From the IMG/VR virus record IMGVR_UViG_3300042894_006198, positions 94,311-158,310 of that record: 64,000 bases of DNA; one strand, written 5' to 3'. Both the position numbers and the translations under genes were made by a program. This DNA is from a virus. The notes beneath the pieces were generated by a model. That model had not been told where the DNA came from and did not search any database. It saw nothing but the letters and a program-made list of their open reading frames with translations. Positions 9,173 through 27,123 of the stretch are shown here, piece by piece (position 1 is the first letter of the stretch; each line of letters starts with the position of its first letter).

Positions 9173-9477
9173 CAATCTCTAAAGATTTACGTTTTTTAAT
9201 CGTTGTGTGCTTTATTATGTTATTAATGACATTAGGTGGTTGCTCATTATTCGAAAAGCAACCTATCCCTGTCAAGCGTGAATTTCCACAAGCTACGCCT
9301 GAGCTAATGAAAAAATGTGAGCAACTTAAAACTATACAGGGTGATAAAGTTGCGATTACTGAAATGTTAAAAACTGTTGTAGAAAACTATACGTTATATT
9401 ATCAATGCTCAACCAAAGTAGAAGGTTGGCAAGAATGGTATAGTGAACAGAAAAAGATTTTTGATGAAGTCAAATGA
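9169..9477 (+). CDS. Putative outer-membrane spanin lipoprotein (Rz1-like)
   Basis: Lipobox LGGC, Pro-rich segment and two further Cys. ATGA overlap with the i-spanin candidate. Confidence 0.6.
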   Translation: MTISKDLRFLIVVCFIMLLMTLGGCSLFEKQPIPVKREFPQATPELMKKCEQLKTIQGDKVAITEMLKTVVENYTLYYQCSTKVEGWQEWYSEQKKIFDEVK

Positions 9478-9671
9478 AAGTTGCAGACATAACAAAAGAT
9501 TATAAATTGTATATGGCTAAAGTCACCGTAAAGCAACTTGGATACAGTGGTCAGGTTGAATTTACTGTAACTGCGCAAAACTTAAACATGGCTAAAATTC
9601 TAATGAAACGACAATATAATTTACAAGATCATCAAATTGGCTCGATAAGAGAAGTCAAGTAAGGAATTATT

Positions 9672-9926
9672 ATGAAAAACATTGCAATAATTGGTTTCGT
9701 AGTGTTGTTAGCAGGATGTGCATCAAGTAAAGATCAACTATATTATGATGCAGCCAAATCGATTAGCAAAGACAATACTATGAGTCAAACTGCTTGTTGG
9801 GCAGCTATTTCAGATATTGCTAAAGGTGGTAGTGAAGGTGCTAAAGTTGGTGCAATCAGTTTAGCAGACAAGTGCAAGAACGAACCCGTAAAGATTGAAC
9901 GTCCTAGAAATTGGATGGGACTATAA
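9672..9926 (+). CDS. Small lipoprotein
   Basis: Signal peptide with lipobox LAGC. Confidence 0.7.
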   Translation: MKNIAIIGFVVLLAGCASSKDQLYYDAAKSISKDNTMSQTACWAAISDIAKGGSEGAKVGAISLADKCKNEPVKIERPRNWMGL

Positions 9927-10682
9927 TAGTTTAGCTATTTGTATAGCTAGTTCATCATTACGTGGTGCATCAGGTAAATCGTTATTGTTTATATCACGAT
10001 ATCCAATGATTGGAAACTCTACGTTTTCATTTCTAATAAATCGTTGAATAAGTTCTTTTGGTGCAGCAATACCATCAGCATCCATTAATTGACCATTAGG
10101 CAATTCTAATACAGCATGATCGGCACGTTTGCCATACGGTGTGTCAGCAATTAGTACAACCACTTTACCACCATATTTTTTCTGTAGTGCTTGGGCAAAA
10201 ACTACACACCCACCATCAAACGGTCCGCTATCGGTTTGTTGTACTAGTAATGTATATATTTTGTTCTTATTTTTAAATGGAAATTTACCTTCATGTATGA
10301 TTTTTCTAGCTACTATACCATGACCAACAGGATATTCTTTATTAAACCTAATAGGTTGTAGCATTGGATAGAGGTATTTTGTTGTACCACTTTGTATATC
10401 AAACTTAGAACCACGTGGTACAAGATGTTTACGCTCTAGTTTTCTAAATGTATCTTCATCTACAACAATAGGTTCGCCCACTATGATAGAACCTATAGCA
10501 ACTGCCTTACCTGTACCTGTACGAACGATGCCAACACGTTTGCCTATGTATGGGTTAAGGGATGGTCCACGCCTACTTTCGTAATACTTTTTACCATCTA
10601 CTATAAGGTCAGCATAGTGTATATCACCATCGCTACGAATGTTTATGCCTATGGATGGTATATCAAACTCATTAAACTTCAT
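9921..10682 (-). CDS. Two-domain protein: ASCH/PUA-like N-domain + Cys-His-Asp papain/transglutaminase-like C-domain
   Basis: YADLIVDGKKYYESR resembles the ASCH GxKxxExR motif. GGCVVFA...HAVL...MDADG gives a candidate triad. Confidence 0.5.
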   Translation of the reverse strand: MKFNEFDIPSIGINIRSDGDIHYADLIVDGKKYYESRRGPSLNPYIGKRVGIVRTGTGKAVAIGSIIVGEPIVVDEDTFRKLERKHLVPRGSKFDIQSGTTKYLYPMLQPIRFNKEYPVGHGIVARKIIHEGKFPFKNKNKIYTLLVQQTDSGPFDGGCVVFAQALQKKYGGKVVVLIADTPYGKRADHAVLELPNGQLMDADGIAAPKELIQRFIRNENVEFPIIGYRDINNNDLPDAPRNDELAIQIAKLL

Positions 10683-11025
10683 TTTTTATTTGTTCACGTT
10701 TTTCAACATACTCTTGATATAGTTCTATTTCTTTCATATTGATTAGGTATGACTTGCCACCTGTCATATGGTTTTTCAACATACCTTCACTTAGCCATTG
10801 TAATCTTTGTTTAAATTCTTCCAAATTAGAACATTTCATATATTCATATGAATTCATGAGTTCTTTTCTTAGCGCATTTAATTTTTGTTGTTTAGTCATG
10901 ATCTACCGTTATATGTCCATAATTCCATCGACTCAAATTGTAATATTGAGTGGTTTCTTCTCTTGATTCAGTAATAAATTCAGTAGCTCTCATTTATATA
11001 TTTATGAGCAACGCTAAATATTATA

Positions 11026-12489
11026 ATGGATAAAAAGCACAAAAAATTACTAAAGTTTACTGATTGGGTTATTGGTCGTTTAGGCATAAAAAATAAACCA
11101 CAGATACGATTTAGTGATGACAAAACAGAAGTTACCAAACATAGAACATTTGGTTCGACCACCCCTAATAATACCATATGGGTCCATGTTGGTGACCGTA
11201 ATACCGCAGATGTAATGCGTACGTTATGCCATGAACTAGTACATGCTAAACAATTTGAAATTGGTACCGCTAAACCACAGATGGACCCAAAGCGTGAACA
11301 AGGCATAGAAGATGAAGCAAATGCTATGGCAGGACGTATGATGCGTAAGTATGGTAAGATGGATGCTACCATATATGAGAGTAAAGAACGAGCATGTTGT
11401 GCAGAATTGCGTCAAGGGTTACTAAAGCTAGAAAAGACTGATTACGATACGATTGATCGTTTAATGAAGAAAATAGCTAAAAAACATGACATTACTCCAA
11501 AACAATTACATGATTACTTTGTTGAAACACATGGTGTTATACCTGATACATGGATTAAAAACAAGAAGAAAGAGTTAAAAGAAAGTGATTTAGGCGAATA
11601 TAAAATTGTTAACATTCCTGAGTTTAGAATACAAGAATTGATCAAAAGCGGTAATGAATACAAAGATGATATGAAAATTATTAAATCGCCTGTAAGTGAT
11701 TTGTTTAGAGTAAGATTAGATATAGAGCATCCATATCGTGATTACTTTTTATATGATAAGAAAAATGATGTGTGTGTTGGTGCAGTATCTATTGAAACTG
11801 TTACTTCAATCCCTAGAAAATCTTTTAATTCTGTACTTAAACCCAATGTAGCGGTTGTTAGTCCACATATAGTATTGGATAAACAATTTCGTCAAAGTGG
11901 ATTAGGTAGTAGAATATATTCTAGTTTTTTAAATAGTAAAAAATGGGTGTTTATTACTGATAGGCATACTGAAGCAGCGTCAAAGTTATGGAATGCATTA
12001 AGCATTAAAAATGGCTTTGTGTCTATTTTTTATGATGTTGTCAAACAGAAAGTAGTTAATGATGTAAATGAAAATACCTTTCGTTTGATTGGTTCACCTG
12101 AGCATTTTAAAATGTCTTTATCAGAAAGTCGTGAAGGGTCATTAACGCATGAAGTAGCTGACAGTTTACCACATGCTTATGTATTACCTGATATTAATAG
12201 TGGAAATCCTTACTTGCAATATAAGTTTGGTGTAGCGATTGCATCAGCACGAGGAGCACAAGCACGTAAAGATGATGATATTAACCCATTTGACGAAAAC
12301 GGTATGCTTGATGTTTTTTCTGATAAAGAGTTTGTAGTAAGTTTCGATCCACACATTGATCAAATTATTAGTGCTGCTTTAAAAAAAATTGGTATGCCTG
12401 ATAATAAAAAATTAGTTGGGGTAAAAGGTAGTAAAGAGGATAAGGATGTTGACAAAGTAAGTCCTGTCATAGGGTTTAGAGGATTTTAG
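11026..12489 (+). CDS. Multidomain late protein: zincin metallopeptidase-like + GNAT-like + C-terminal domain
   Basis: HELVH...EDEANA, then FRQSGLGSRIY (GNAT acetyl-CoA motif). Upstream CTAAATA. Confidence 0.6.
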   Translation: MDKKHKKLLKFTDWVIGRLGIKNKPQIRFSDDKTEVTKHRTFGSTTPNNTIWVHVGDRNTADVMRTLCHELVHAKQFEIGTAKPQMDPKREQGIEDEANAMAGRMMRKYGKMDATIYESKERACCAELRQGLLKLEKTDYDTIDRLMKKIAKKHDITPKQLHDYFVETHGVIPDTWIKNKKKELKESDLGEYKIVNIPEFRIQELIKSGNEYKDDMKIIKSPVSDLFRVRLDIEHPYRDYFLYDKKNDVCVGAVSIETVTSIPRKSFNSVLKPNVAVVSPHIVLDKQFRQSGLGSRIYSSFLNSKKWVFITDRHTEAASKLWNALSIKNGFVSIFYDVVKQKVVNDVNENTFRLIGSPEHFKMSLSESREGSLTHEVADSLPHAYVLPDINSGNPYLQYKFGVAIASARGAQARKDDDINPFDENGMLDVFSDKEFVVSFDPHIDQIISAALKKIGMPDNKKLVGVKGSKEDKDVDKVSPVIGFRGF

Positions 12490-12490
12490 C

Positions 12491-12925
12491 ATGAAAATTT
12501 ATGAAATTTTAAAAGAAGATACATCAGATCGTCCTCATTTATCTAAAGAACAATTGGATGCAGTTGAACGTTTTGCCGATAAGTTATGGGAAAAATTAGG
12601 TATAGATGTAAAGTTTGGCACTCATTTTTTAGAACGTTTATATCGTTATGAAAATGACCCACCTATTTCAGGAGCAGAGTTAGTTCGTTTATTCAAACAA
12701 GAATATCAAAAATACGGTAAAGAAATTGCTTCACTACCACCTGAAACTGAAGGTGTTTTTATGGATTTACTCACTAATGTAAACCTACCATTTGTGATTA
12801 AACAGCGTGATGATGATGAACCTAAGAAAATATTAGGGCAAACGATAATGCGTAAACCTAGTAATACCACTAAAGGACAATTTGTCCCTAAAGGTCCTGC
12901 ATTTAAAATTGGTAGAACGGATTAA
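12491..12925 (+). CDS. Putative internal head protein
   Basis: N-terminus MKIYEILKE resembles the T4 capsid-targeting sequence. Confidence 0.5.
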   Translation: MKIYEILKEDTSDRPHLSKEQLDAVERFADKLWEKLGIDVKFGTHFLERLYRYENDPPISGAELVRLFKQEYQKYGKEIASLPPETEGVFMDLLTNVNLPFVIKQRDDDEPKKILGQTIMRKPSNTTKGQFVPKGPAFKIGRTD

Positions 12926-12932
12926 ATACAAT

Positions 12933-13304
12933 ATGCGAGCTAAAGAATTTATAACAGAACAAAACAGTATTGGTGAACCACCTGTACGTGCTAGAGAAGC
13001 ATCACGTGGATTGCATAAGTTTCGTGACATTGAAGGTATGGATCGTATTTACGAACTTAATCGTGTTATGATGGCAGTTGCTTGTACAGATGGAACAAAA
13101 CCTGTCGAGTTAAATTCAGAAAGTTATACAGGTAGATATAATACAGCACATCCTTATACAAAAGAAGAACAAGATATGTTAAAAGTTGCATATGCTGCAG
13201 TGGGTTCAGATATGCATGATTTTAATAACGGTGATATGCGTAGTTTAGAAGTAAAAGAAACTAATAAATCAAGCCCAATACAAGCTTTCAAAGGCTTTAA
13301 ATAA
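12933..13304 (+). CDS. Putative internal head protein
   Basis: Starts MRAKEFITE right after TTAAATA and resembles the C-terminal domain of 11026-12489. Confidence 0.55.
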   Translation: MRAKEFITEQNSIGEPPVRAREASRGLHKFRDIEGMDRIYELNRVMMAVACTDGTKPVELNSESYTGRYNTAHPYTKEEQDMLKVAYAAVGSDMHDFNNGDMRSLEVKETNKSSPIQAFKGFK

Positions 13305-13352
13305 TTTTACTTCCGTCTTAATATCGTATAAGTAGTTACACAGAGGACTACT

Positions 13353-14048
13353 ATGAAAAATATTGATATAAACAAAACAATTGATGCTGTGAAATTAAAA
13401 TGGTATCACGAATGGTTAGCCACACATATCTACGATGAAGGTGAAAGCGGATTTCACGAACAACTTACCAGACAAGTTGTTGAAAAATATATTGACCCAC
13501 TTAATTTAAGCAAAGACGCAAAGATTTTAGACATGGGCTGCGGTCCAGGCTACTTTATGAACGAACTTAAAAAACGTGGTTACAATAATTATCTTGGTAT
13601 AACATTAAGTCAAGGTGATATTGATATTTGTACAAAAAATGGGCATACGGTAGAATCATATGATTTAAGCTTTTTACCGCAAAAGAAAGGGTATATAGAT
13701 GAATCTGTTGATTTTATTTTTTGTAGACATGCTTTAGAACATAGCCCTTACCCATTGTTTACTTTGGTTGAATATAATAGAGTTTTAGTACAAAATGGTA
13801 AAATTTATATTGAAGTACCTGCACCTGATTGTGACAGAATGCATGAATTTAATATTAATCATTATAGCATTTTAGGTGAGCGCATGTTAGCTGCATTGTT
13901 ACAGCGCACAGGATTTACCATTAATGCGTTTGAAAATTTAGAATTTGATTTAAGTATTGGGCAAAATGAAGATGGTACACCAAAGAAAGTACGTGAAAAA
14001 TTTTATTGTGTAGTTGCTACAAAGGCTAGACCACTTGATTTAAAATAA
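13353..14048 (+). CDS. Class I SAM-dependent methyltransferase
   Basis: ILDMGCGPG motif I and DFIFCRHALEH. Confidence 0.85.
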   Translation: MKNIDINKTIDAVKLKWYHEWLATHIYDEGESGFHEQLTRQVVEKYIDPLNLSKDAKILDMGCGPGYFMNELKKRGYNNYLGITLSQGDIDICTKNGHTVESYDLSFLPQKKGYIDESVDFIFCRHALEHSPYPLFTLVEYNRVLVQNGKIYIEVPAPDCDRMHEFNINHYSILGERMLAALLQRTGFTINAFENLEFDLSIGQNEDGTPKKVREKFYCVVATKARPLDLK

Positions 14049-14065
14049 CACTCATAAATATCTTT

Positions 14066-14260
14066 ATGAGTGATTTAGATGATTTAAAAAAATTGGCAGG
14101 TATTACCCTGCCAAATTCTTCTGACTATGGCGCAGCCATTAGTATGTCTGCAACCCAAAAAGCACAAATCATGCGTGAAAAGAATATAAAACCTGGAGAT
14201 GCGGCATGGTTTAAATTATGGTTTGCACAAACTCATCTAACAGGTGAAAAACCAATTTAG
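14066..14260 (+). CDS. Small late protein
   Basis: ATAAATA immediately upstream and an LKKLAGI motif. Confidence 0.55.
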   Translation: MSDLDDLKKLAGITLPNSSDYGAAISMSATQKAQIMREKNIKPGDAAWFKLWFAQTHLTGEKPI

Positions 14261-14290
14261 ATAAATAATTTATATTGGGAATTTTAAAAA

Positions 14291-16009
14291 ATGGCAGAAC
14301 CTAATCCATCAAATGTAGCACCTTGGTATTTACGTAATATTAATCAAGCACTTGCTTTAGACTCAACTACGGGCAATGTATATGTTCGCACTGATGCTAA
14401 TATAAGTTTTGGCAATGCAAACCTAACAATTGGAAATGTAGGTATCACAAGTTTAGGTAATGTGGTAATAAGTGGTAATACATTACCTGTTACTGTAAGT
14501 GGTGGAAATTTAAACGCTAATGTTACAGGTAGTACTGTATCATTAAGTGGTAACTTAGCGGGTATTACAGGTAATGTAACCATTGTTGATGGTGGTGGAA
14601 GCATTACAATAGATGGTACAGTTGGTATTAGTGGTAATGTCAATATTGGCACAATGCCTAATGTAAACGCTTCAATTTCAGGAAATGTTAATATTGGTAC
14701 AATGCCTGAAATTGAAATTAAAAATGATTCAGGTAATCCCATACCTGTATCAAAAGATACCAATGTTAATAGTGTAACTAATCCACTTTATGTAGAGGGA
14801 GTAAACAATGCAAGTTTTTTTGCTCCAACACAAAGTGATAGTTTTGGTAGATTGCGTGTAAGTAATCCACAAACATTATTTGATACACAAAGTAGATATT
14901 ACAACCATAATCAGTTTGCTAGTAATGTAGCAGGCGCAGGTACATATACATTTGATAGCAACAGTAGCACATTTGCTATGGCAGTCAATACCGCTAGCGG
15001 TGATAAAGTATATGCAGAAACATACAAAGTTTTCCCTTATCAGCCAGGTAAGAGTTTACTAATTTATTCATCATTCTGTATGAATATTGCTAAACCTAAT
15101 CTACGCCAACGTGTGGGTTATTTTAGTAGTCAAAATGGCATCTACTTTGAACAAAGTGACAGCACATTATATATGGTTATTCGTAGTTATAGTTCAGGTA
15201 GTGTAGTAGAAACTAGAGTAGCACAAAGTAGTTGGAATGGTGATCCATTAAATGGCCTTGGACCGAGCGGTATTGAATTGAACCCCGCAGTAGACCAAAT
15301 CTTTTTCTGTGATATTGAATGGCTAGGTGTAGGTAGTGTTCGTACAGGATTCATCATTGGTGGTCAATATATTGTTGTGCATACATTTGAACATGCTAAT
15401 ATAGCAGGTAATACTACAACTTATATGAGTACTGGTAGTTTACCACTAAGATTTGAAATTGAAAACACAGGTACAGCAAGTAGTTCTAGCACACTAAGAC
15501 AAATTTGTAGTACAGTAATTAGTGAAGGTGGTTACTCATTGTCAGGAACACCTAGAAGTATTGGACATAATTTAGGTACTCCTGTACGATTGCCTAATGA
15601 CCAAAGTTTTCTACCATTGTTAAGCATAAGGTTATTAAGCACTCGTCCTGATAGCATTGTATTGCCTACATTCTTTACCATAGCACCCGTAGCACAAAGT
15701 ACATTTAAGTACCGTATATATAGTAGAGCAGTTACTACTGGTGGAACATGGACCAGTATCGGAGCATCAAGTCCTATTGAATACAATTTAGCACCTACTG
15801 CGGTCAGTAGTGGAGAAATTGTTACTGAAGGATTCATCATGTCAAGTAACCAAACTGCGGCAGCTCCCAGTCAGGAATCATTTGGTTTTGAAGTTCAACT
15901 ACAAAGACAGCCTTTTACTAATGTAATGTACGAATATGTAATGACAGCCGCAACTATTGGTACTAACCAAGATGTTTATGCAAGTATTGAATGGCAAGAA
16001 GTCAATTAA
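14291..16009 (+). CDS. Putative virion structural/fibre protein
   Basis: Gly/Asn/Ser/Thr-rich with GNV/GNL repeats, then a beta-rich domain. Late-type motif upstream, located next to terminase. Confidence 0.55.
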   Translation: MAEPNPSNVAPWYLRNINQALALDSTTGNVYVRTDANISFGNANLTIGNVGITSLGNVVISGNTLPVTVSGGNLNANVTGSTVSLSGNLAGITGNVTIVDGGGSITIDGTVGISGNVNIGTMPNVNASISGNVNIGTMPEIEIKNDSGNPIPVSKDTNVNSVTNPLYVEGVNNASFFAPTQSDSFGRLRVSNPQTLFDTQSRYYNHNQFASNVAGAGTYTFDSNSSTFAMAVNTASGDKVYAETYKVFPYQPGKSLLIYSSFCMNIAKPNLRQRVGYFSSQNGIYFEQSDSTLYMVIRSYSSGSVVETRVAQSSWNGDPLNGLGPSGIELNPAVDQIFFCDIEWLGVGSVRTGFIIGGQYIVVHTFEHANIAGNTTTYMSTGSLPLRFEIENTGTASSSSTLRQICSTVISEGGYSLSGTPRSIGHNLGTPVRLPNDQSFLPLLSIRLLSTRPDSIVLPTFFTIAPVAQSTFKYRIYSRAVTTGGTWTSIGASSPIEYNLAPTAVSSGEIVTEGFIMSSNQTAAAPSQESFGFEVQLQRQPFTNVMYEYVMTAATIGTNQDVYASIEWQEVN

Positions 16010-16027
16010 GATATTTTAAGATATGTA

Positions 16028-17593
16028 ATGAATAGTAGTATTCAACTTATAAAGAATCCTTATGAACTAACTACGTTTAAGGATGATAAACAGTTACAAG
16101 ATTTTATAAAATGTTGTGATCCAAAACATGGTTATCTATATTTTATGGATAACTTTTTTGTTATACAACATCCCACTAAAGGTAGTATGAATTATCATCC
16201 CTACCCTTATCAAAAAAAATTAATCGAAACCTACCATAATTATCGTTTTAGTATTTCTCTTATGCCACGTCAAAGTGGTAAATCAACAAGTGCAGCAGGA
16301 TATCTATTGTGGTATGCCATGTTTGTGCCTGATAGTACAATTTTAATTGCAGCACATAAGTATGCAGGTTCGCAAGAAATTATGCAACGTATACGATATG
16401 GTTATGAAAACTGCCCATTACATATTAAAGCAGGTGTAGTGACTTATAATAAAGGATCACTAGATTTTGAAAATGGTAGTAGGATAATTAGTGCTACAAC
16501 CACTGAAAATACGGGTCGTGGTCTTTCTATATCATTATTATATTTGGACGAATTTGCCTTCGTTCGCCCAGGTATTGCTAAAGAATTTTGGACTTCTATT
16601 GCTCCTACCTTAGCTACAGGTGGTAAAGCAATTATAACATCTACACCTAATAGCGATGAAGATCAATTTGCTTTGATTTGGAAAGGTGCTAATAAAACAC
16701 AAGATGAGTATGGTAATGAGACAGAATTAGGTGTAAATGGTTTTAAATCTTATAAGGCACATTGGAGTGAGCAGCCTGGGAGGGATGAGGCTTGGGCTGA
16801 ATCAATGAAAGCACAATTAGGTGAGGAGCGATTTAGACGTGAAATTGGTTGTGAATTTGTCATTGGTGATGAAACATTAATTAATCCACTGATGCTTACC
16901 ACATTAGAAGGAATTGAACCCATTGAGCGTATGGGACAGGTAAGATGGTATTCAAAACCACAAAAAGGCAATATTTACTGTGTGGGATTAGATCCAAGTT
17001 TGGGAACAGGAAGTGATCCTGCCGCTATTCAAATATACGAAGCTAATACTACAAAACAAATTGGTGAATGGAAACACAATAAAACAACCATACCTGAGCA
17101 AATTAAACTATTAGCAAAAATTAATGAGTATATTGTTGATATAACCAATGAACCTAATAATCTTTACTATAGTTTAGAGAATAATACAATTGGTGAAGCA
17201 GCATTAATTTCATTGAGTGAATATGGTGAAGAAAACATTAAAGGCACTATGCTAAGCGAACCTAAAGCTGTTGGTGCTACACGTAGATATCGAAAAGGAT
17301 TCAATACCACACAAAAAAGTAAATTAGCAGCATGTAGTAAGCTGAAAAACTTAATAGAAAGTGGTAAAATGCAACTAAAAAGTAAAGCTTTAATTACTGA
17401 ACTAAAAGCATTTGTTGCTGCAGAAGGTAGTTATGCAGCTAAGATCGGTGAAACAGATGACTTAGTTATGGCTACACTATTAGTAGTAAGAATTCTCCAA
17501 CACTTGCAACATTATCATAGTGATTTGGATAGTCATGTTAGGGATCATAGTGAGTATATTGAACCCATGCCTTTTATAATGACGCTTGGATAA
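16028..17593 (+). CDS. terL: Terminase large subunit, T4 gp17-like
   Basis: YPYQ adenine motif, PRQSGKST Walker A, LDEFAF Walker B, ITSTP motif III and nuclease motifs GLDPS/DDLVMA. Confidence 0.95.
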   Translation: MNSSIQLIKNPYELTTFKDDKQLQDFIKCCDPKHGYLYFMDNFFVIQHPTKGSMNYHPYPYQKKLIETYHNYRFSISLMPRQSGKSTSAAGYLLWYAMFVPDSTILIAAHKYAGSQEIMQRIRYGYENCPLHIKAGVVTYNKGSLDFENGSRIISATTTENTGRGLSISLLYLDEFAFVRPGIAKEFWTSIAPTLATGGKAIITSTPNSDEDQFALIWKGANKTQDEYGNETELGVNGFKSYKAHWSEQPGRDEAWAESMKAQLGEERFRREIGCEFVIGDETLINPLMLTTLEGIEPIERMGQVRWYSKPQKGNIYCVGLDPSLGTGSDPAAIQIYEANTTKQIGEWKHNKTTIPEQIKLLAKINEYIVDITNEPNNLYYSLENNTIGEAALISLSEYGEENIKGTMLSEPKAVGATRRYRKGFNTTQKSKLAACSKLKNLIESGKMQLKSKALITELKAFVAAEGSYAAKIGETDDLVMATLLVVRILQHLQHYHSDLDSHVRDHSEYIEPMPFIMTLG

Positions 17594-17629
17594 TAAAGTA
17601 GATAAATACACTATCATAGTGGATTTATC

Positions 17630-20026
17630 ATGCCTAAAAGTAATGAATTAATTAACGTCGATCTTGATAATTTCTTGAATGCAAGAAATCTAGATGCTGT
17701 ACCGTACGATAGTAGCGGTAAACAAGTTCCTATTCCTGATGATGCTGAAGTATTTCAGTTTACATTTGCGCCAAATGGTAGTGAACAAGGCACAGCCACG
17801 GTATCAATTGATGGTACTAAGTCATTAAACTTATATTATGATGATGCAATAATTAAAGAAGATGACCACGATGAATGGTTTGATTTTGTAAAATCACTTA
17901 AACGTTTTGCAACACAGCATCAATTAAGTTTTAAAACAAAAAATATTGACAGATTGGCAAATGATATGAAAAAACGTGAACATCTTAAAAAACTAGAAGA
18001 AGGATATTACGGTACACGTCATACAAGTTATAGCGACAAAAACCCAGGTACCGTCAAAATGATCATCAAACATAGCAGACCACTTGATGAGAATGATCAG
18101 CGTTTTCGTAATATTGAAAAGATTTTCCTTGAAACTGAAACAGGCGAGCGTTTTTTGCTTGATACCAAAAAACCAAGTATTGGTCGAGCATATGCACGTC
18201 ATTTAGCTGAAGGTGGACGTTATAATGATGAGCGTTGGAACCACATTCAACAAATTGCTGAAGATATTAATAAATTAGGTGGTTTTGTACGTGCTACACG
18301 TAATAAACAATTCAATGAAAGTGCTGTAAAATTAGTTAATGAAGCACAAAATCATTACCAATCATTACGTGAAACAATAAAACAACTACAAGGATCACGT
18401 GGTTATAAGAATTATTTCGAAAGTTGGAAACCAACATTAAATGAAACAAGTGATGATAGTGCAGTAACAGAAATGTTTTTAACACAAAAGCTAGACCCAC
18501 GTGTTGAAAATGCACTACCTGTTTTAAATCGTTTAGCAAAGAACTTAACAGAAATAACTGAGGTTGCTGAGTTTGAAAGTTGGGCAAATGATATTGTTAG
18601 TGAAGTTATGCACCCAACCCAAGAAGGTACATTAGATGATTTAATCGATTTACTAGGTTCAGACAGTGATTTTTTAGCATTAGGTCCTGATGGAAAAAAT
18701 GCAATTAATGAATTAAATGGCATACTTGATAATCAAAGCTTATATGCACGTTTGCAAAAAGCAGGACGCAGTGACCCTGATCAAGACGCACGTCCTATAA
18801 TTATTGGTTGGATGCAGGAAAATGCAACTGACGAGCATTATGAAGATGTTTTAGATAAAATTGAAAAAGAACAACAGGTAACACCTGCGGCTAAACCTGC
18901 ACCTCAACCTGAACAAAACAAACCAAAAACTGTCCCACCACCTCCACCTGAAGTTGCTGAGGATTATGATCCACGTTTGTCACAGAAAACACAAATTGCA
19001 GGTACCTTACCAACTTATCGTTATGCTAAAGGTTTGTTGGATAAGGTAGAAGGACCACAAGGTAAGACATTAGACTTTGGTGCGGGATTGGGATTAGGTT
19101 CAGCGGAAATAGGTGCTGATAGTTATGAAATGCATCCAAAAGCAGGATTCAAGCCTAACTTTGACCGTGTTGACAGTATACCTGATGAGTCATATGCAAA
19201 AATTGTATCATTAAATGTTCTTAATGTTATACCTAATGATAAAGGTTGGCGTGATGCAGCAGTAAAAGATATTGGTCGTATTCTTATGCAAGGTGGTTCA
19301 GCACTTATCACTACACGTGGTAAAGATGTGTTAGCTGCAAAAGGTGAGCCACAAGATGAACCTAATAGTATCATAACAACTGCAGGAACGTTCCAAAAAG
19401 GATTTAGCCCACAAGAACTAAAAGGTTATGTACAAAATGTACTTGGTGGTGGGTTCACCGTTAAGACTGTAAAAGTAGGTAGTGCACCTGCAGCAATCTT
19501 AGTCACTAAGGGTGGTGAGCAAGTTAATGAACTTAAAGGTAAGATGCCTACACCTGACGAAGTAAAAGCACTGTTACAAAAACAAAAAGATCGTTTTGCT
19601 CAACAAGGTTTTGTACGTGCTAAAGATGAAACAGAACAAATGCTTAAACAACGTGATACGCAACCTAGTGCTAAAGTGGAGGAATATTTAAAAGAGTTTG
19701 AAGGTGAAATTGAAGAGGCATGTTGGAAAGGCTATCATAAAGAGGGTATGAAAACCATGTTTGGTAAAAAATATCCTAATTGTGTAAAAAATAAAGCCAA
19801 TGAAAGTTCAGTACAAGAAGCATCTAAAGATAAAGAATCTTCAGTAACCGTACGTAACCCTGTAGCCAAAAATGCAATGGCAGGAATTGGTGGTGGTGGT
19901 ATGGGCAAACACAAAGATAAAAAACAAGCTGATAAGCGTGGTGAAGTAAAACATAAAAAAGATAAAGTCCCAATGGATCTTGAAGAAGGATCACTTGATA
20001 GGATTAGAAAACTATCAGGTCTATAA
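17630..20026 (+). CDS. Large multidomain late protein with an internal SAM-methyltransferase-like domain
   Basis: LDFGAGLG...SLNVLNVI, a Pro-rich linker, a CWKGY...PNCVK motif and C-terminal RIRKLSGL. ATAAATA upstream. Confidence 0.55.
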   Translation: MPKSNELINVDLDNFLNARNLDAVPYDSSGKQVPIPDDAEVFQFTFAPNGSEQGTATVSIDGTKSLNLYYDDAIIKEDDHDEWFDFVKSLKRFATQHQLSFKTKNIDRLANDMKKREHLKKLEEGYYGTRHTSYSDKNPGTVKMIIKHSRPLDENDQRFRNIEKIFLETETGERFLLDTKKPSIGRAYARHLAEGGRYNDERWNHIQQIAEDINKLGGFVRATRNKQFNESAVKLVNEAQNHYQSLRETIKQLQGSRGYKNYFESWKPTLNETSDDSAVTEMFLTQKLDPRVENALPVLNRLAKNLTEITEVAEFESWANDIVSEVMHPTQEGTLDDLIDLLGSDSDFLALGPDGKNAINELNGILDNQSLYARLQKAGRSDPDQDARPIIIGWMQENATDEHYEDVLDKIEKEQQVTPAAKPAPQPEQNKPKTVPPPPPEVAEDYDPRLSQKTQIAGTLPTYRYAKGLLDKVEGPQGKTLDFGAGLGLGSAEIGADSYEMHPKAGFKPNFDRVDSIPDESYAKIVSLNVLNVIPNDKGWRDAAVKDIGRILMQGGSALITTRGKDVLAAKGEPQDEPNSIITTAGTFQKGFSPQELKGYVQNVLGGGFTVKTVKVGSAPAAILVTKGGEQVNELKGKMPTPDEVKALLQKQKDRFAQQGFVRAKDETEQMLKQRDTQPSAKVEEYLKEFEGEIEEACWKGYHKEGMKTMFGKKYPNCVKNKANESSVQEASKDKESSVTVRNPVAKNAMAGIGGGGMGKHKDKKQADKRGEVKHKKDKVPMDLEEGSLDRIRKLSGL

Positions 20027-20027
20027 T

Positions 20028-21929
20028 ATGTCAGCATCAATACTGTTGGAATCTGCTAAACCACCTGTTGGTCGTGAATTCCAACACCTTGAAGATTTAA
20101 TCTACATAGAAGGCGCACGTGGTATAAAACGAGTGCTTGAATGTATTGCAGGTATTATTAAACGTCAACCATTAGAAGTAAAATGGGATGGTAGCCCTGC
20201 TATAATTTTTGGTAGAACAGACAACGGTCGTTTTCACTTTGGTGACAAATATAGTCGTGATATTGTAGACAGCCCACAAGCAGTATATGAACAATATATT
20301 GGACGTAAACCTAAGCGCACTTTTGAACGTGAACAATTTGCACGTGATATGGCAGCATTGTATGAAATATATGAAGCAGCAACCCCGCAAGATTTTCGTG
20401 GTTTTATGGAAGCAGGATTGCTATATAAAGGGTCACCATCATTAAACGAAGATTGTTTCCAATGTAACCCAAATACTGTAATTTACAAAATCAACCCTCA
20501 AAGTCAATTAGGACAGCGTATTGCTAATAGTGAAAGTGGATGTGCTGCAACAGCATACTTTCAGCACTTACCTGCTACAGGTGGTAGACGATATCCTGTA
20601 GGTGATTATGCTAATAGTTTTAAAGGTAATCAAGTTGTTGTTATACCACCATTACACACAAGTGATTCACCAAAATTAGAACGTTCATTGCTAGAAAAAT
20701 ATTGGAACTTTGCCAAACAAAAGCGTTATAGTATTAATGAATTTGTGTCTCCAATGGTTATAAAAAAGATACTATACGAATATGTTAATAGCCAAATAAA
20801 TGAAAATGATTTAAGCGCATTGAATAATTTAGGAGATAATTTCACTACCTATGCACGTGATAGTTTATCTGCTAAGGAGCAAAACATATTAGCTGAACAT
20901 TTACAAAATAATTTAGATGGAGCTAATGATACTTTTAGGATGATACGTGCTACTATGAAAATTAAGGATTTAATTGTTGACCAACTTGAAGAAAGCACAT
21001 TACGCAAGTTAGGCATTGAGGCAGAATTACCTGATGGACAACGTGGTGGTGAAGGATTTGTTTATGATATCAACGAAGGTGTCAACCCAATAAAACTAGT
21101 CAAGCGTGGCGCATTTACTAGAGCAAATAAATTTAAGAATGAATCAAAATATTTAAAAGAATCAATTAGTCGTAACGGTAAGAGTGATCGTGCAGTAATT
21201 ACTTTTGGTCGTTGTATGGGTCATCGTGGACATATGTATCTTGCTAATAGTGTGTTTAGCACTGCAAAAGAACAAGGTGCAGACCCTTATGTTATATTAA
21301 GTAGAACGATGGGTGAAGATGATCCACTTACGCCAAATGAAAAATTATCCATCTACCATAAAGTATTTCCAAACCAAAAACAATGTTTTGTTGCTGCTGA
21401 TGATAGTATGCCCACATTAATGAGTGCGTTAAAAAAATTAAATGAATTAGGGTATAAGCATGTTACTGCTATATTTGGTAATGATCGTGCTGATAGTATG
21501 GGGCATGTTAAAGAATACAATGGTAAGAGTTATCAATTTGAAACATTGAATGTTATTAGTAGACAACAAACAAATGATCCATACAAGAATATAAACGGAC
21601 CACGTGGCACTGATATGCGTAAAGTATTAAGTGATCCTAATTTGTCTGAGCAACAAAAATTTGGATATTGGCGCAAGTGTATGAGTCCACAATTGAGCGA
21701 TGATGATGTACAATATATCATGAGCATTGTACAAAAACGTATGGGTAATCAATTGGATGAAGCTGATAACCCAAATTATTTTGGTGCTAATAGTGCATCA
21801 CCGATTCCTGGTACGCCTGAAGATTTACAAGATGTTCGTACACCTGCCCAAAAGCGTAAAGATGCTATCAGAGCGGTTAAAAAAGCACGTGAATTACGCA
21901 AATTTATGGGTCATAATGAAGTACGTTAA
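20028..21929 (+). CDS. Ligase-fold (KxDG) domain fused to an HIGH-family nucleotidyltransferase domain
   Basis: EVKWDG, EGFV and IKLV motifs, then ITFGRCMGHRGH and IFGNDR. Confidence 0.55.
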   Translation: MSASILLESAKPPVGREFQHLEDLIYIEGARGIKRVLECIAGIIKRQPLEVKWDGSPAIIFGRTDNGRFHFGDKYSRDIVDSPQAVYEQYIGRKPKRTFEREQFARDMAALYEIYEAATPQDFRGFMEAGLLYKGSPSLNEDCFQCNPNTVIYKINPQSQLGQRIANSESGCAATAYFQHLPATGGRRYPVGDYANSFKGNQVVVIPPLHTSDSPKLERSLLEKYWNFAKQKRYSINEFVSPMVIKKILYEYVNSQINENDLSALNNLGDNFTTYARDSLSAKEQNILAEHLQNNLDGANDTFRMIRATMKIKDLIVDQLEESTLRKLGIEAELPDGQRGGEGFVYDINEGVNPIKLVKRGAFTRANKFKNESKYLKESISRNGKSDRAVITFGRCMGHRGHMYLANSVFSTAKEQGADPYVILSRTMGEDDPLTPNEKLSIYHKVFPNQKQCFVAADDSMPTLMSALKKLNELGYKHVTAIFGNDRADSMGHVKEYNGKSYQFETLNVISRQQTNDPYKNINGPRGTDMRKVLSDPNLSEQQKFGYWRKCMSPQLSDDDVQYIMSIVQKRMGNQLDEADNPNYFGANSASPIPGTPEDLQDVRTPAQKRKDAIRAVKKARELRKFMGHNEVR

Positions 21930-22074
21930 GAATATATATTTTTTGCGTTACTGTTTATCCTAAATACTTTTGACACAGAAAGAAATCAAGTAACATTCAA
22001 TCTGTAGTCGAAGTTCTCGAAACTACACTTAGGTCTCATTTTAGCTACATTTTAACTTATTAAGGAGAAAATAA

Positions 22075-23070
22075 ATGTCATTAGCTGCTATTCGTGCTAA
22101 ATTGGCTGCACAAGAAGCCAAAACCAATGCCCAAGGTTCAACTACATTTTCGGGCGATAACGCAATCTACCCACATTGGAATATGGAAGAAGGTACAACG
22201 ACAACGGTTCGTTTCTTGCCTGATTCAGATGGTTTGAATGATTATTTTTGGGTTGAGCGTAATATGATTAACCTTGAGTTTCAAGGTATTAAGGGGCAAG
22301 CATCAAACCCTGTAACGGTAAAAGTACCGTGTGTTGAGATGTATGGTGAGAATTGTCCTGTTCTTGCTGAAGTACGTACATGGTATAAAGATGAATCCAT
22401 GAAACCCATTGCTAATAAGTATTGGAAAAAGCGTACTTATATTTTCCAAGGATTTGTCCGTAACAGTCAAATGACAGAGGAAAATGTACCTGAGAATCCC
22501 ATTCGTAGGTTTATTATTTCCCCACAAATTTTTGGTGTTATTAAAAATAGTTTGATGGATCCTGATATTGAAGAAATCCCTACACACTATATGCGTGGTT
22601 TAGATTTTAGAATTATTAAAACAAGCAAAGGTGGTTATGCTGACTACAGTACTAGTGGATGGTCACGTAAAGAAAGTGCATTAACTTCAGATGAGCAAGC
22701 TGCAATTGAAAGATTTGGTTTGTTTAATTTGAAAGATTTCTTACCTAAAAAACCTAGCGAAAGTGAATTACGTGTTATCAAAGAAATGTTTGAAGCTAGC
22801 GTAAATGGTGAAGAATATGATACAGACAAGTGGGGCGCATATTACCGTCCAAGTGGTGTACAAGCACCTACATCAGCACCTGTATCACATGATGATGAAG
22901 AATCTTCGTATGTAGTTCAATCTCCTGTAGCTACAAAACCTGTAATCACACAGGTTAGCGAAGAACCTGCTGAAGCAACTGACGTTAAGGTTACTAAGCC
23001 AACTGAATCAAAGCAAAACGTTACTGATGTTCTTGCCATGATTCGTAGCAAGCGTAACGCACAAGCGTAA
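22075..23070 (+). CDS. gp32: Single-stranded DNA-binding protein, T4 gp32-like
   Basis: VRFLPD, C-x7-CP, RRFII and GGYADYSTS motifs. It lies upstream of uvsX/uvsY. Confidence 0.85.
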   Translation: MSLAAIRAKLAAQEAKTNAQGSTTFSGDNAIYPHWNMEEGTTTTVRFLPDSDGLNDYFWVERNMINLEFQGIKGQASNPVTVKVPCVEMYGENCPVLAEVRTWYKDESMKPIANKYWKKRTYIFQGFVRNSQMTEENVPENPIRRFIISPQIFGVIKNSLMDPDIEEIPTHYMRGLDFRIIKTSKGGYADYSTSGWSRKESALTSDEQAAIERFGLFNLKDFLPKKPSESELRVIKEMFEASVNGEEYDTDKWGAYYRPSGVQAPTSAPVSHDDEESSYVVQSPVATKPVITQVSEEPAEATDVKVTKPTESKQNVTDVLAMIRSKRNAQA

Positions 23071-23087
23071 ATAGCATTGTTCAATCA

Positions 23088-23109
23088 GGGTAGCATTACG
23101 ATGCTACCC
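23088..23109 (+). terminator. Stem-loop after ssb (terminator or processing site)
   Basis: GGGTAGCAT-TACG-ATGCTACCC perfect 9-bp stem with a weak U-tract. Confidence 0.55.
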
Positions 23110-23128
23110 AATTCTAAGGAGATTAAAA

Positions 23129-23362
23129 ATGACTTTACCTGATGAAAGGTACCGAGCGTTAAAACAAGGTAAAAAGTTATTGGAAGAACTATGCGACCCA
23201 GGCCGAACCCCACGTGTTCCAAGTATGGTACGTGATCGTGCTAGAGCAGCACTAAAACATTTCCCCAATGATTTTGATATTGATTGTTTAGCAGACTCTG
23301 CACCAACAATTCTTGATAAACAACTATTTAAAGTATATACAAATAATTCTATTGCAAAGTAA
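23129..23362 (+). CDS. Hypothetical phage protein
   Basis: SD AAGGAG upstream. Confidence 0.65.
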   Translation: MTLPDERYRALKQGKKLLEELCDPGRTPRVPSMVRDRARAALKHFPNDFDIDCLADSAPTILDKQLFKVYTNNSIAK

Positions 23363-23366
23363 AATA

Positions 23367-23855
23367 ATGCCAAGATTTTTAGAAAGACAAAAAGCATTAC
23401 AAGCAGGGTTACCTACCTACTTTACAGGTAGACCATGTAAAAGAAATCATATTTCAGAACGTTTTACGTCTTCATGGATTTGTGTAGAATGTTCAAGAAT
23501 GGATCTTTATAAGTCTGACCGAGATCGTTATAGAGAAATGAAAAATACTTTAGAATTCCAATTTAGACAAAGAAGAAACGCTGCGCTTAAGAAAGGTATA
23601 CCATTTACTATAAATTATGAAGAATTAAATCAACCTGAATTTTGTCCAATATTAGGCATAAAACTAAACTATGGATGGGGTGGTTTAAATGGGCATCTTA
23701 GAGACCCTGCTAAAGCAACAATAGATAAAAAAATACCAAAGTTAGGCTATATAAAAGGAAATGTATATATAATATCTTGGAGAGCAAATAAGCTTAAATC
23801 TGATATGACATTAGATGAATTAGAAAAAATTTTAAACTATTTAAAAAAGGTATAA
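23367..23855 (+). CDS. Putative HNH/His-Me-finger free-standing endonuclease
   Basis: N-terminal YFTGRPCKRNH...CVEC Zn module, then CPILG...TIDKKIPKLGYIKGNV...ANKLK. Confidence 0.6.
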   Translation: MPRFLERQKALQAGLPTYFTGRPCKRNHISERFTSSWICVECSRMDLYKSDRDRYREMKNTLEFQFRQRRNAALKKGIPFTINYEELNQPEFCPILGIKLNYGWGGLNGHLRDPAKATIDKKIPKLGYIKGNVYIISWRANKLKSDMTLDELEKILNYLKKV

Positions 23856-23858
23856 TCA

Positions 23859-24923
23859 ATGCAGAAACCGTTTGACATTGCACGTTTTCGTAAAGACGTA
23901 ACAAAAAGTATTGAAGGAATTAGTATAGGATTTCATGATCCTACTGATTGGATTTCTACAGGCAACTATGCTTTAAATTATCTAATCAGTGGTGATTTTA
24001 ATAAAGGTGTACCACTTGGAAAAGTCACTGTTTTTGCAGGTGAAAGTGGTAGTGGCAAATCATATATTTGCAGTGGAAATATCGTAAAAAATGCACAAGA
24101 ACAAGGTATCTATGTTGTTCTTATTGATAGTGAAAACGCACTTGATGAAAGTTGGCTACATGCACTAGGGGTTGATACAAGTGATGATAAATTACTTAAA
24201 ATGAATATGGCAATGATTGATGATGTTGCCAAAACTATCTCAACCTTTATGAAAGATTATAAAGAAACACCTGTTGCTGAAAGACCTAAAGTATTATTTG
24301 TTATTGACAGTTTAGGTATGTTAATGAGTCCAACTGAAGTAAACCAATTTGATAGTGGTGATTTAAAAGGTGACATGGGACGTAAAGCCAAAGCACTTAA
24401 AGCACTTGTCACTAATTGTGTAAACATGTTTGGTTCATTTAATGTAGGCTTAGTTGCTACTAATCATACATATGCTTCGCAAGATCCATACAACCCTGAC
24501 CCTAACGTAAGTGGTGGACAAGGATTTGTTTTCGCAAGCAGTATATTAGTTGCCATGAAAAAATTAAAACTCAAAGAAGATGAGGAAGGTAATAAAACTT
24601 CAGATGTGCTAGGCATACGTGCAGGATGTAAAGTAATGAAAACACGTTTTGCTAAACCATTTGAAGATGTTGAAGTACATATTCCGTATGAAACAGGTAT
24701 GAATCCTTATAGTGGATTTTTTGACCTAATTGAGAAAAAAGGATTTGTTACTAGAGAAGGTAACCGTTATATGTATACAGATCAAAACGGTGAAGTACAT
24801 CGTTACTTTCGTAAAGAATGGGCTAAAAACGAAAACGGTATTATGGATTTAGTAATGAAGGAATTCTCGCAACGTGAAAAACAAGTAAATACAGAATTAG
24901 CGGAGGCTGAACAAAATGCTTGA
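23859..24923 (+). CDS. uvsX: RecA-like recombinase UvsX
   Basis: GESGSGKS Walker A, IDSENA, VIDSLG, DMGRKAK and TNHTY. Confidence 0.92.
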   Translation: MQKPFDIARFRKDVTKSIEGISIGFHDPTDWISTGNYALNYLISGDFNKGVPLGKVTVFAGESGSGKSYICSGNIVKNAQEQGIYVVLIDSENALDESWLHALGVDTSDDKLLKMNMAMIDDVAKTISTFMKDYKETPVAERPKVLFVIDSLGMLMSPTEVNQFDSGDLKGDMGRKAKALKALVTNCVNMFGSFNVGLVATNHTYASQDPYNPDPNVSGGQGFVFASSILVAMKKLKLKEDEEGNKTSDVLGIRAGCKVMKTRFAKPFEDVEVHIPYETGMNPYSGFFDLIEKKGFVTREGNRYMYTDQNGEVHRYFRKEWAKNENGIMDLVMKEFSQREKQVNTELAEAEQNA

Positions 24924-26038: not shown

Positions 26039-26072
26039 CACTATATAGTAAATACTTCAAAAGGAAACAAAA

Positions 26073-26789: not shown

Positions 26790-27123
26790 GATTATTAATT
26801 AAAGATTATAAGTTGACACCTTTAGGTTGGTTTATTGCATTGTTGTTTGGATTGTTTTATGTACCACTATGGATATTATTTCATCCTAAAGAATTTTGGC
26901 AAGAATCTTTAAAACCATGGTTTAAAGAATGAATAATCACTTACGTACTATTGCAACTAAAGCTAGTCGTGATATTGATTTAGCATATATGGGTGATGCT
27001 TATGCCATCTCACTTACTAAAGCCATTATTAAAGATTTAACTGATGAATTAGGCAAGGTTAAATGGATGGGCGATGATGAAGGATGGGACAAAGCTATAC
27101 AAGCTGTACAAAAAGAAATTAAA

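Follow-up and report, generated by a model that had tools for sequence, protein, structure and literature searches.

The uncultured giant phage behind IMG/VR virus record IMGVR_UViG_3300042894_006198 probably packs enzymes into its capsid, and its prohead protease probably cuts them apart. The stretch analysed (the window, 64,000 nucleotides) covers bases 94311-158310 of the 158,310-base record, for which CheckV gives a completeness of 45%; near-complete relatives have genomes of 303 and 317 kb. The genes concerned lie at window positions 9474-21929, on both sides of the gene for the large terminase subunit TerL. They include small open reading frames (ORFs) that start with a nine-residue N-terminal tag, and three large ORFs of 487, 798 and 633 amino acids (aa) in which module borders fall at sites of the form hydrophobic residue-x-Glu (h-x-E). 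Loading and processing in the manner of phage T4, extended to modular chains, is in our judgement rather likely to be the best explanation of these genes. No DNA match turned up in 50,697 phage records, either with megablast (9474-21929) or with blastn (11026-12925). In IMG/VR the 123-aa ORF of the window has 572 relatives, and the best 80 loci (1.03 Mb in total) were taken for comparison. Labels such as L004-L008 and L061 denote related loci, and labels such as P0136 denote homologous proteins. Statements credited to sources with a PMC number refer to extracts of those sources.

N-terminal tags, modular chains and their joints

The consensus tag, M-[RK]-x-x-E-[FI]-[IL]-x-E, is similar to MKTYQEFIAE, the T4 capsid targeting sequence (CTS) with which both IPII and IPIII of T4 start (record NC_000866). 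Three small ORFs of the window carry the tag. The 144-aa ORF (12491..12925, plus strand) starts with MKIYEILKE followed by D, and the rest of the protein matches the C-terminus of phrog_23027, which has 602 positions. The 123-aa ORF (12933..13304, plus strand) starts with MRAKEFITE followed by Q and belongs to a family of ~124-aa proteins. The 33-aa ORF (10892..10993, minus strand), absent from the default ORF list and found again in L007 and L008, consists of MRATEFITE and 24 further residues. These three starts bear out the likeness to the T4 CTS that was claimed in the original prediction. The fourth start quoted there, MKFNEF of the 253-aa ORF, has no closing h-x-E and is kept merely within a 97-98% identical orthologue; it was rejected as a tag. 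Upstream of the 253-aa ORF, the window, L007 and L008 hold the 33-aa tag remnant together with a 75-aa ORF, and in L004-L006 the leader of the 33-aa ORF instead heads a 286-aa protein at the same place.

The ~124-aa family comprises 879 proteins with the C-terminal motif SP[IV]xxFKG[FY]. Alignment of 21 members (56-89% identity) shows no variation at R2, E5, F6 and E9 and very little at M1 and A3. An AlphaFold2 (AF2) model of the family from the 21 sequences, with a predicted local distance difference test score (pLDDT) of 53.6, is too poor for a structure search, and a protein atlas gives only unnamed viral clusters with scores of 0.80-0.84, leads at best. The pattern M[RK]x(2-3)E[FLIMY][ILVMFA]xE starts 145 of the 1596 called genes in the 80 related loci and this genome, and some tagged genes are missed because the gene caller uses the first ATG. 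Inside proteins the pattern occurs 33 times in 378,794 residues, or 8.7e-5 per internal position. After removal of the first 12 residues, the tagged proteins fall into eight sequence-unrelated clusters. One of them, the largest (128 members), unites the 124-aa family with a second family of ~130 aa; the seven others hold proteins of 144, ~202, 286, ~224, 264, 111 and 191 aa. The Arg, Ala, Glu and Phe codons of the tag differ synonymously among 98 distinct starts, which argues for selection on the peptide, the RNA not being conserved. The 124-aa and ~130-aa families share the tag and are neighbouring genes in most relatives (L009-L083). Both families and the 487-aa ORF also share a C-terminal SP[VI]xxF[KR]G[YF] ending (window 12933-13304 and 12127-12489).

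The 487-aa ORF is divided into four modules, all on the plus strand. Residues 1-118 (11026..11379) form a zincin module with the motif HELVH and a weak IrrE/ImmA-like (Peptidase_M78) match, ending in IYE then S. Residues 119-186 (11380..11583) form helical module B, similar to phrog_10346 and ending in LKE then S. Residues 187-367 (11584..12126) form module C, with a predicted GNAT fold, flanked by LKE-S, LGE-Y and LSE-S. Residues 368-487 (12127..12489) form module D, a homologue of the tagged ~130-aa family (MRAKEFITE...SPVKAFKGYPK), and in the alignment LSE367 falls under the ITE of the tag. Among 1.84 billion representatives searched, 1631 match the ORF at E<=0.001. In the 150 matches listed of these 1631, the breakpoints on the query are at residues 117-122, 184-193 and 361-367, and they coincide with IYE118-S, LKE186-S (together with LGE191-Y) and LSE367-S. 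Orthologues in L005 and L007 have 305 residues and read ...WIKKQKK-LKE then SREGSL, without module C. In the window and in L004, 182 extra residues are inserted exactly at LKE-S and end in LSE-S. The order of modules is also permuted, with module B first behind a tag (MRAEEFNE-SAADELK or MRAYELEE-SAVEELK, for example) and the zincin last, in 7 of the 23 proteins read. Module C stands alone behind tags in proteins of 170-200 aa (MRFWEILKE-Y, MKASEFIRE-S, MKATEFIDE-Y) or heads other chains. Its AF2 model, from 14 sequences, has a pLDDT of 89 and a predicted template modelling score (pTM) of 0.82. The pLDDT drops below 50 in its first 8 residues and to a mean of 38 in its last block, which would place both joints in disordered ends. 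Foldseek finds 57 PDB chains at E<=0.001 for this model, and 31 of the 32 rows shown are acetyltransferases, with TM-scores of 0.32-0.45; on the model, module C is a GNAT fold. Pfam gives no family over its cut-off for the module C of the window, and two Pfam GNAT models match its homologues (2 and 1 matches among 14, E 7.6e-5 to 0.0065).

The 633-aa ORF starts two bases past the end of the stop codon of the 798-aa ORF, and its parts also lie on the plus strand. Residues 1-8 (20028..20051) are a short leader, MSASILLE then S, which resembles the start MSKVLLE-S of the major capsid protein (MCP). Residues 9-378 (20052..21161) form a DUF6267 module that ends in LKE then S; the match to PF19782 covers residues 20-368 with 72.4 bits against a cut-off of 27. 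The module contains KWDG, which may be a ligase-type motif. Residues 379-578 (21162..21761) form a cytidylyl/NMN-adenylyl-transferase-like module (phrog_3041) that ends in LDE then A, and residues 579-633 (21762..21929) form a conserved tail, ADNPNYFG..IPGTP..RKFMGH. Across the family this tail of ~55 residues reads ADNPNYFG..S.IPGTP...[RK][RK]FMGH (21762-21926), and its ending resembles the [RK][RK]LxG[LI] of the scaffold-like protein described below. DUF6267 and the transferase are fused here and are two separate genes in cyanomyoviruses. The ORF has 333 homologues (120 listed, 21 read), with architectures of 352-1096 residues. Stand-alone DUF6267 proteins carry full tags (MKITEVILE-A, MKIAEIITE-S, MRARQFIVE-T) where the window has MSASILLE-S. 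In P0136, P0154, P0161 and P0172, extra modules of ~80-400 residues are placed exactly between LKE and the transferase, and each of them ends in h-x-E.

The 798-aa ORF, again on the plus strand, begins with a conserved N-domain (residues 1-411, 17630..18862) homologous to gp278 of the Pseudomonas jumbo phage PA5oct. Residues 26-304 align with gp278, and both genes stand behind TerL in the same synteny; L061 shares just residues 12-411. A Pro-rich linker and VAE-D are followed by a methyltransferase-like module (residues 445-631, 18962..19522) and then VNE-L. The tblastn matches to this module begin at residues 432-453. Residues 697-730 (19718..19819), between IEE-A and VQE-A, are a mini-module, ACWKGYHKEGMKTMFGKKYPNCVKN. 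This mini-module (ACWKGY...CVKN) is absent from L004, and L005 has an extra module of ~110 residues ending in VKE-A. Relatives of the mini-module number hundreds (most of 579 matches). At N-termini it follows tags (MRYTEILE-ACWKGY, MRYREILE-ACWKGY, MRFREITE-ACW, MKYRELLE-ACW, MKAEEILGE-ACW), and within chains it is preceded by LDE, IAE, VSE or IDE. The ORF ends in LDRIRKLSGL (19994..20023), like the ...IKRLAGL of the scaffold-like protein. LDRI[RK]KLSGL ends 4/4 close orthologues of the 798-aa ORF, and [IF][KR]RLAG[LI] ends 55/57 relatives of the scaffold-like protein. A 64-aa ORF (14066-14260) starts with MSDLDDLKKLAGI, the same C-end motif (IKRLAGL, IRKLSGL) at its N-terminus, and this is kept in L004, L005 and L007. 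Across the loci the motif stands at the exact C-end in 11 of its 26 occurrences.

The conservation of the joints was measured by projecting the window borders onto homologues, with long high-scoring segment pairs of >80% identity dropped and [LIVM]xE required exactly at P3-P1. The background rate of [LIVM]xE in this test is 0.015-0.028. The motif is exact in 133/133 homologues at the border before ACWKGY of the 798-aa ORF, 38 of them behind an N-terminal tag, and in 35/35 at the border before ADNP of the 633-aa ORF. Border 379 of the 633-aa ORF has it in 31/49 (39 within two residues) and border 9 in 32/108 (53 within two residues). For the 487-aa ORF the counts are 12/13 at border 368, 7/13 at border 192 and 12/47 at border 119, and for border 731 of the 798-aa ORF 3/8. 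At border 187 of the 487-aa ORF h-x-E is found in just 3/10 homologues, and the conserved site is five residues on, at LGE-Y. As a control, internal h-x-E sites were compared with border sites in the same alignments. In the 633-aa ORF the border sites are kept in 26/34 (the leader), 31/39 and 29/29 homologues (76%, 79% and 100%), while of its 16 internal sites 13 reach 0-8% and the remaining ones 27%, 45% and 48%. Retention in the 487-aa ORF is 59-100% at the borders (IYE118 in 68/115 homologues, LSE367 in 13/13) against 6-9% at three internal sites. Over both ORFs, retention is 0-9% at 16 of the 19 internal look-alikes, with flank identity equal to or higher than at the borders. At border joints P3 is restricted to L/I/V/M and P1 to Glu, with P2 free to vary.

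The h-x-E triplets listed in the original prediction all exist, and their placement at domain junctions holds for part of them. IYE118, LKE186 and LSE367 of the 487-aa ORF, LLE8, LKE378 and LDE578 of the 633-aa ORF and IEE696 of the 798-aa ORF stand at module borders. VQE730 of the 798-aa ORF flanks an insertion or deletion, although it is the site kept in just 3/8 homologues, and VAE444 is placed solely by where the tblastn matches start. The module swaps that were expected at such sites in related phages are found as insertion, loss and permutation, and stand-alone modules begin after the tag at the same residue.

Protease sites in head proteins and virion homologues

The genome encodes a T4-type head module on the minus strand, outside the window. 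In genome coordinates it holds the MCP (21764-22975; phrog_138, E 3.4e-99), a scaffold-like protein of 367 aa (23004-24107), a gp21-type prohead protease of 214 aa (24174-24818; phrog_207, E 2.4e-61), a 74-aa protein and the portal (26065-27816; PHROG match). The Pfam match of the protease to Peptidase_S77 (T4 gp21) has 92.8 bits against a cut-off of 27 (24318-24758, minus strand). A gp21-type protease is present in 3/5 relatives' records, including both records that are 86-89% complete.

T4 gp21 cuts after L/I-x-E, and this rule and the role of the CTS are as the original prediction gave them (PMC9026906, PMC5694885). The four-residue form [LI]xE[SA] was counted in 174 called genes and compared with 500 shuffles per gene. 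The scaffold-like protein ranks first, with 10 sites against 1.27 expected (p 9e-7). Rank 2 is the 633-aa ORF (5 against 0.63, p 5e-4) and rank 3 the 487-aa ORF (3 against 0.45, p 0.011). The protease itself ranks 6, with ILE then S at residue 16 and LKE then S at residue 200; T4 gp21 likewise has LIE9 and LAE206. The MCP starts with MSKVLLE then S and has LQE43 then S. In 57 distinct relatives the scaffold-like protein has a mean of 9 such sites, and eight of its ten sites here recur in 49 or more of these relatives; T4 gp22 has 16 [LI]xE in 269 residues. The bare triplet [LI]xE occurs 13 times in the 798-aa ORF and 15 times in the 633-aa ORF.

Virion evidence comes from cultured phages. The record of PA5oct gp278 notes it as a virion structural protein detected by electrospray ionization tandem mass spectrometry (ESI-MS/MS). 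The NMNAT of cyanophage S-SCSM1 (409 aa; L169:1820-3049, NC_070962) matches residues 376-572 of the 633-aa ORF with 29% identity (E 4.6e-15). It is annotated in its record as 'virion protein' and starts with MKSFLQFLKE-AAES, a near-T4 leader. An N-terminal extension of ~105 residues stands ahead of its transferase domain. The S-SCSM1 virion proteome, obtained by mass spectrometry, has 45 proteins, the NMNAT included, and NMNAT-like or cytidylyltransferase proteins are reported in two other cyanophage virion proteomes (PMC9602691). The mini-module is present in 29 cyanomyovirus records. In S-SCSM1 it belongs to gp029 (518 aa), which is annotated 'virion protein', lies two genes ahead of TerL and is itself made up of a series of these small modules.

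Proposed mechanism and alternative explanations

In the mechanism that we propose, a T4-type prohead would be assembled around a scaffold core and a gp21-type serine protease. The nine-residue leader would act as a T4 CTS, bring the protein into the core and be cut off after its last Glu. The 487-, 633- and 798-aa ORFs would be chains of independent modules, with short linkers ending in h-x-E. The modules would be an IrrE-like zincin, a GNAT-fold enzyme, a methyltransferase-like enzyme, DUF6267, an NMNAT-like nucleotidyltransferase and small Cys-rich or basic modules, and the protease would cut after every exposed h-x-E joint. The bond at a joint would be the same as the bond that ends the leader, and therefore a module would have the same mature N-terminus alone or in a chain. 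Because a joint closes with the same bond as a tag, one module could take the place of another. Once freed, the modules would remain in the head until they left it together with the DNA. We infer the binding of tag to core, the cleavage, the retention in the head, the ejection and the action of the enzymes on the host. The packed modular payload of the original prediction finds partial support in the protease gene, the tag, the border joints, the module swaps and the virion homologues. Its plug-and-play character agrees with the swapping at joints but is not wholly new, with T4-even internal proteins, alike in their CTS alone, and polyvalent proteins already in print. Two proposed items of cargo find no support: the ASCH/Cys-His-Asp ORF has no tag, and the stand-alone methyltransferase at 13353 has neither tag nor joints.

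Several points weigh against this mechanism. For this phage and for the carriers of the 124-aa family the evidence consists of genes alone. The tblastn search with the 123-aa protein against the 50,697 phage records gave no match, so that no cultured relative among them carries the 124-aa family. Homologue counts are counts of related sequences and not of independent events. The four-residue motif was picked after the joints of the 487-aa and 798-aa ORFs had been seen. It is not specific, since TerL, which is unexpected as a substrate, has 3 sites against 0.96 expected, and the 798-aa ORF is unenriched, with 1 against 0.93. The 798-aa ORF has no N-terminal tag, and several of its joints have Val at P3, outside the published L/I rule of T4. 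Two of the seven sites that were listed for it as junctions, LEE124 and LNE272, are inside the conserved N-domain, within the part aligned with PA5oct gp278. The 487-aa ORF has no N-terminal tag either, and its zincin-first relatives start with MRLxEI...; the zincin module could itself be a processing enzyme. The authors of the S-SCSM1 study allow that the NMNAT may be carry-over in the CsCl preparation (PMC9602691). The cyanophage Syn1 has DUF6267 and the cytidylyltransferase in two different genes, both without a tag and placed among replication genes, beside gp41 and mazG, and these enzymes are therefore not always cargo.

A rather unlikely alternative is that the large ORFs encode uncut multidomain enzymes of the cytoplasm. 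The h-x-E at borders would then be a helix-end or linker feature combined with recombination microhomology, and the shared N-terminus would serve a purpose other than head loading, such as folding, stability or translation. The bare triplet is indeed common, with 494 [LI]xE in 50,376 residues genome-wide against 399 expected, but 16 of 19 internal look-alikes are kept in at most 9% of homologues, whereas the borders are kept in 59-100% with P2 free and with flanks that are no more conserved. The L-x-E-S found at either end of the 182-residue insert is what an insertion through microhomology would leave, yet in stand-alone forms the residue after the joint comes first behind an N-terminal tag. 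The untagged Syn1 homologues among replication genes speak for uncut enzymes, and the tagged NMNAT homologue in purified virions speaks against them. Cleavage at the joints is something that we infer, and uncut enzymes gain from this. They leave aside the ~8-fold enrichment of the motif in the scaffold-like protein, its presence at both ends of the protease, and the synonymous tag codons, which point to selection on the peptide.

It is also very unlikely, in our estimate, that the small tagged proteins (123, 144 and 33 aa) alone are head cargo in the manner of T4, and that the large ORFs are structural or enzymatic late proteins sharing linker habits. In this genome the full tags are on small ORFs alone, but in other phages stand-alone DUF6267, GNAT-fold and CWKGY modules are tagged. 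In line with the annotation of PA5oct gp278, the N-domain of the 798-aa ORF could be a structural part of the virion. The MRLxEI start of zincin-first relatives is gone from the 487-aa ORF, yet module D of this ORF is homologous to a tagged family and has LSE in place of the tag's ITE. The 633-aa ORF, moreover, stands at rank 2/174 for the motif of the scaffold-like protein.

Another explanation, very unlikely in our estimate, is that the chains are polyvalent proteins in which the zincin they carry, in place of the prohead protease, does the processing before or after delivery (Iyer et al. 2017; proposed in PMC5512222). An HExxH zincin does stand at one chain end in the 487-aa ORF and many relatives, but the same joints occur where there is no zincin, as in the 633-aa and 798-aa chains and in many tagged proteins. 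The joint motif matches the sites that accumulate in the head proteins (scaffold-like protein, MCP, protease). The zincin matches its best family, Peptidase_M78, weakly, with at most 22.2 bits against a cut-off of 22, and MPTase-PolyVal (PF18818) was found in one of the 15 proteins scanned, below its cut-off (E 0.042, 14.4 bits against 27.5).

None of these alternatives explains border conservation, the equivalence of tag and joint and the enrichment in the scaffold-like protein all together. Beyond T4-style loading and processing of modular chains, we offer a wider reading, which we regard as possible but doubtful: a cargo grammar shared by many uncultured T4-type phages, a C-terminal address and a programmable head container. 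In the grammar, a folded module bounded by h-x-E may be encoded either alone behind the nine-residue tag or in a chain, and the head protease would release an identical mature protein either way. Untagged chains may be recruited through a second address at the C-terminus; candidates are [RK][RK]L[AS]G[LI] (scaffold-like protein and 798-aa ORF) and SPhxxF[KR]G[YF] (the two core tagged families and the 487-aa ORF). The head may be a programmable container of a changing host-directed kit of acetyltransferase, NAD-related nucleotidyltransferase, ligase-like enzyme, methyltransferase and peptidase. If loading and processing occur as proposed, T4 capsid targeting would be a widespread form of modular delivery in large environmental phages and not a coliphage peculiarity, in families with hundreds to thousands of members (879, 1631 and 579). 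Exact mature N-termini would be predicted for many proteins of unknown function, and enzymes acting in the first seconds of infection would be singled out. Tags and joints would provide natural addresses for loading foreign proteins into phage heads. The recurrent NMNAT-like enzymes in cyanophage virion proteomes (PMC9602691) would also be explained.

Neighbouring genes and comparison with known systems

The T4-late-promoter-like motif GATAAATA occurs on the plus strand at 14260..14267, 31 nt before the gene of the 572-aa protein, and at 17601..17608, 29 nt before the 798-aa ORF. The genome has 10 copies, with a further one in the window at 40364-40371 and seven outside it. All ten lie 13-39 nt upstream of a same-strand gene, mostly a structural one (head, tail). 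The T4 late-promoter consensus TATAAATA was rejected as the promoter here, with 2 window copies against 11.7 expected; GATAAATA fits instead. TerL (16028-17593) lies between the enzyme chains, and the window also holds a gp32-type single-stranded DNA-binding protein (SSB) and a UvsX-type recombinase. The gene order of structural protein, TerL, structural proteins, SSB and UvsX is as in PA5oct. In L004 (13205-16043) TerL is split into ORFs of 310 and 223 aa, which match residues 2-275 and 302-520 of the window TerL. A 273-aa ORF between the halves is unmatched in this genome, and the arrangement looks like the insertion of a mobile intron, an intein or a homing endonuclease. The 572-aa virion structural protein (14291-16009; phrog_1645) has an N-terminal Gly/Asn-rich repeat run, and its length is 499-626 aa among close relatives. 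Members of phrog_1645 also occur in cyanomyoviruses and Puniceispirillum phage HMO-2011.

The 253-aa ORF (9921-10682, minus strand) matches ASCH at residues 23-115 with 20.6 bits, below the cut-off of 21.2 (E 7.5e-4), and has a second domain after IHE131. It is 97-98% identical in L004, L005 and L007, and the genes upstream of it differ. The stand-alone methyltransferase (13353-14048) was rejected as cargo, with no tag and a single [LI]xE[SA] at chance level. Outside the window, an extremely acidic 280-aa protein (genome 24833-25675, minus strand) adjoins the prohead protease, and its start, ...LIDLIINED, resembles the ...LLDNGIINED of the scaffold-like protein. A single ORF of 6388 aa (genome 50826-69992, plus strand) lies amid tail genes.

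Already in print are the T4 CTS with its variable internal proteins, the Glu-cut ejection proteins of giant phages, the P1 DarB signal and the concept of polyvalent proteins. A literature search, mostly of sources outside subscription journals, found no account of enzyme chains jointed at prohead-protease sites and returned T4, SPN3US and P1 only. Like polyvalent proteins (PMC5512222), the ORFs described here are multi-domain enzyme chains beside packaging genes, predicted to travel with the DNA, with a zincin module and methylase, nucleotidyltransferase and GNAT-type domains. They hold at least two unrelated effector domains per polypeptide beside TerL, as polyvalent proteins do. For polyvalent proteins processing by the zincin has been proposed (PMC5512222), whereas the joints here fit the prohead protease, also in chains without a zincin. 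Unlike the polyvalent proteins described in that source, the present chains have no MuF or portal fusion, and their zincin falls below the MPTase-PolyVal model.

In phiKZ, 201phi2-1 and SPN3US, ejection and inner-body proteins are cut at S/A-x-E by a prohead protease related to gp21 (PMC5694885). As is proposed for this phage, many head-internal proteins of those giant phages are cut after Glu, and paralogues share identical N-terminal propeptides. Those propeptides are mostly >100 residues with Ser or Ala at P3, their removal is not a separation of modules, and the phages are of another lineage (PMC5694885). DarB of phage P1 (250 kDa) enters the head through a short N-terminal signal that also loads a reporter (PMC9024508), and thus offers a likeness in a large enzyme with a short head-loading signal. 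The DarB signal is >9 and <=30 residues long and is not common to the other Dar proteins; it is not known to be a protease site, and no modular joints are known for it. The S-SCSM1 NMNAT is a homologue of the C-terminal transferase module of the 633-aa ORF, yet it is a single-enzyme protein, and the virion-protein section of PMC9602691 makes no mention of a leader or of processing for it.

The closest comparison is with T4, where IPI, IPII, IPIII and Alt have a CTS and are processed by gp21 (Mullaney & Black 1996, cited in PMC9026906 and PMC5694885). T4 provides the biochemically characterised system, and the present one is known from its genes. As in T4, a leader of ~10 residues ending in L/I-x-E and sharing EFI[AT]E stands on unrelated proteins, a gp21-family protease is present, and the scaffold is riddled with the same sites. 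The putative cargo here is mostly enzymes, in contrast to the small basic proteins of T4. Unlike the fast-changing internal proteins of the T-even phages, the two tagged families of 124 and ~130 aa are strongly conserved core genes. Unlike the bond that ends the T4 CTS, the same bond here also joins modules within chains of 300-1100 residues, and modules move between tag and chain.

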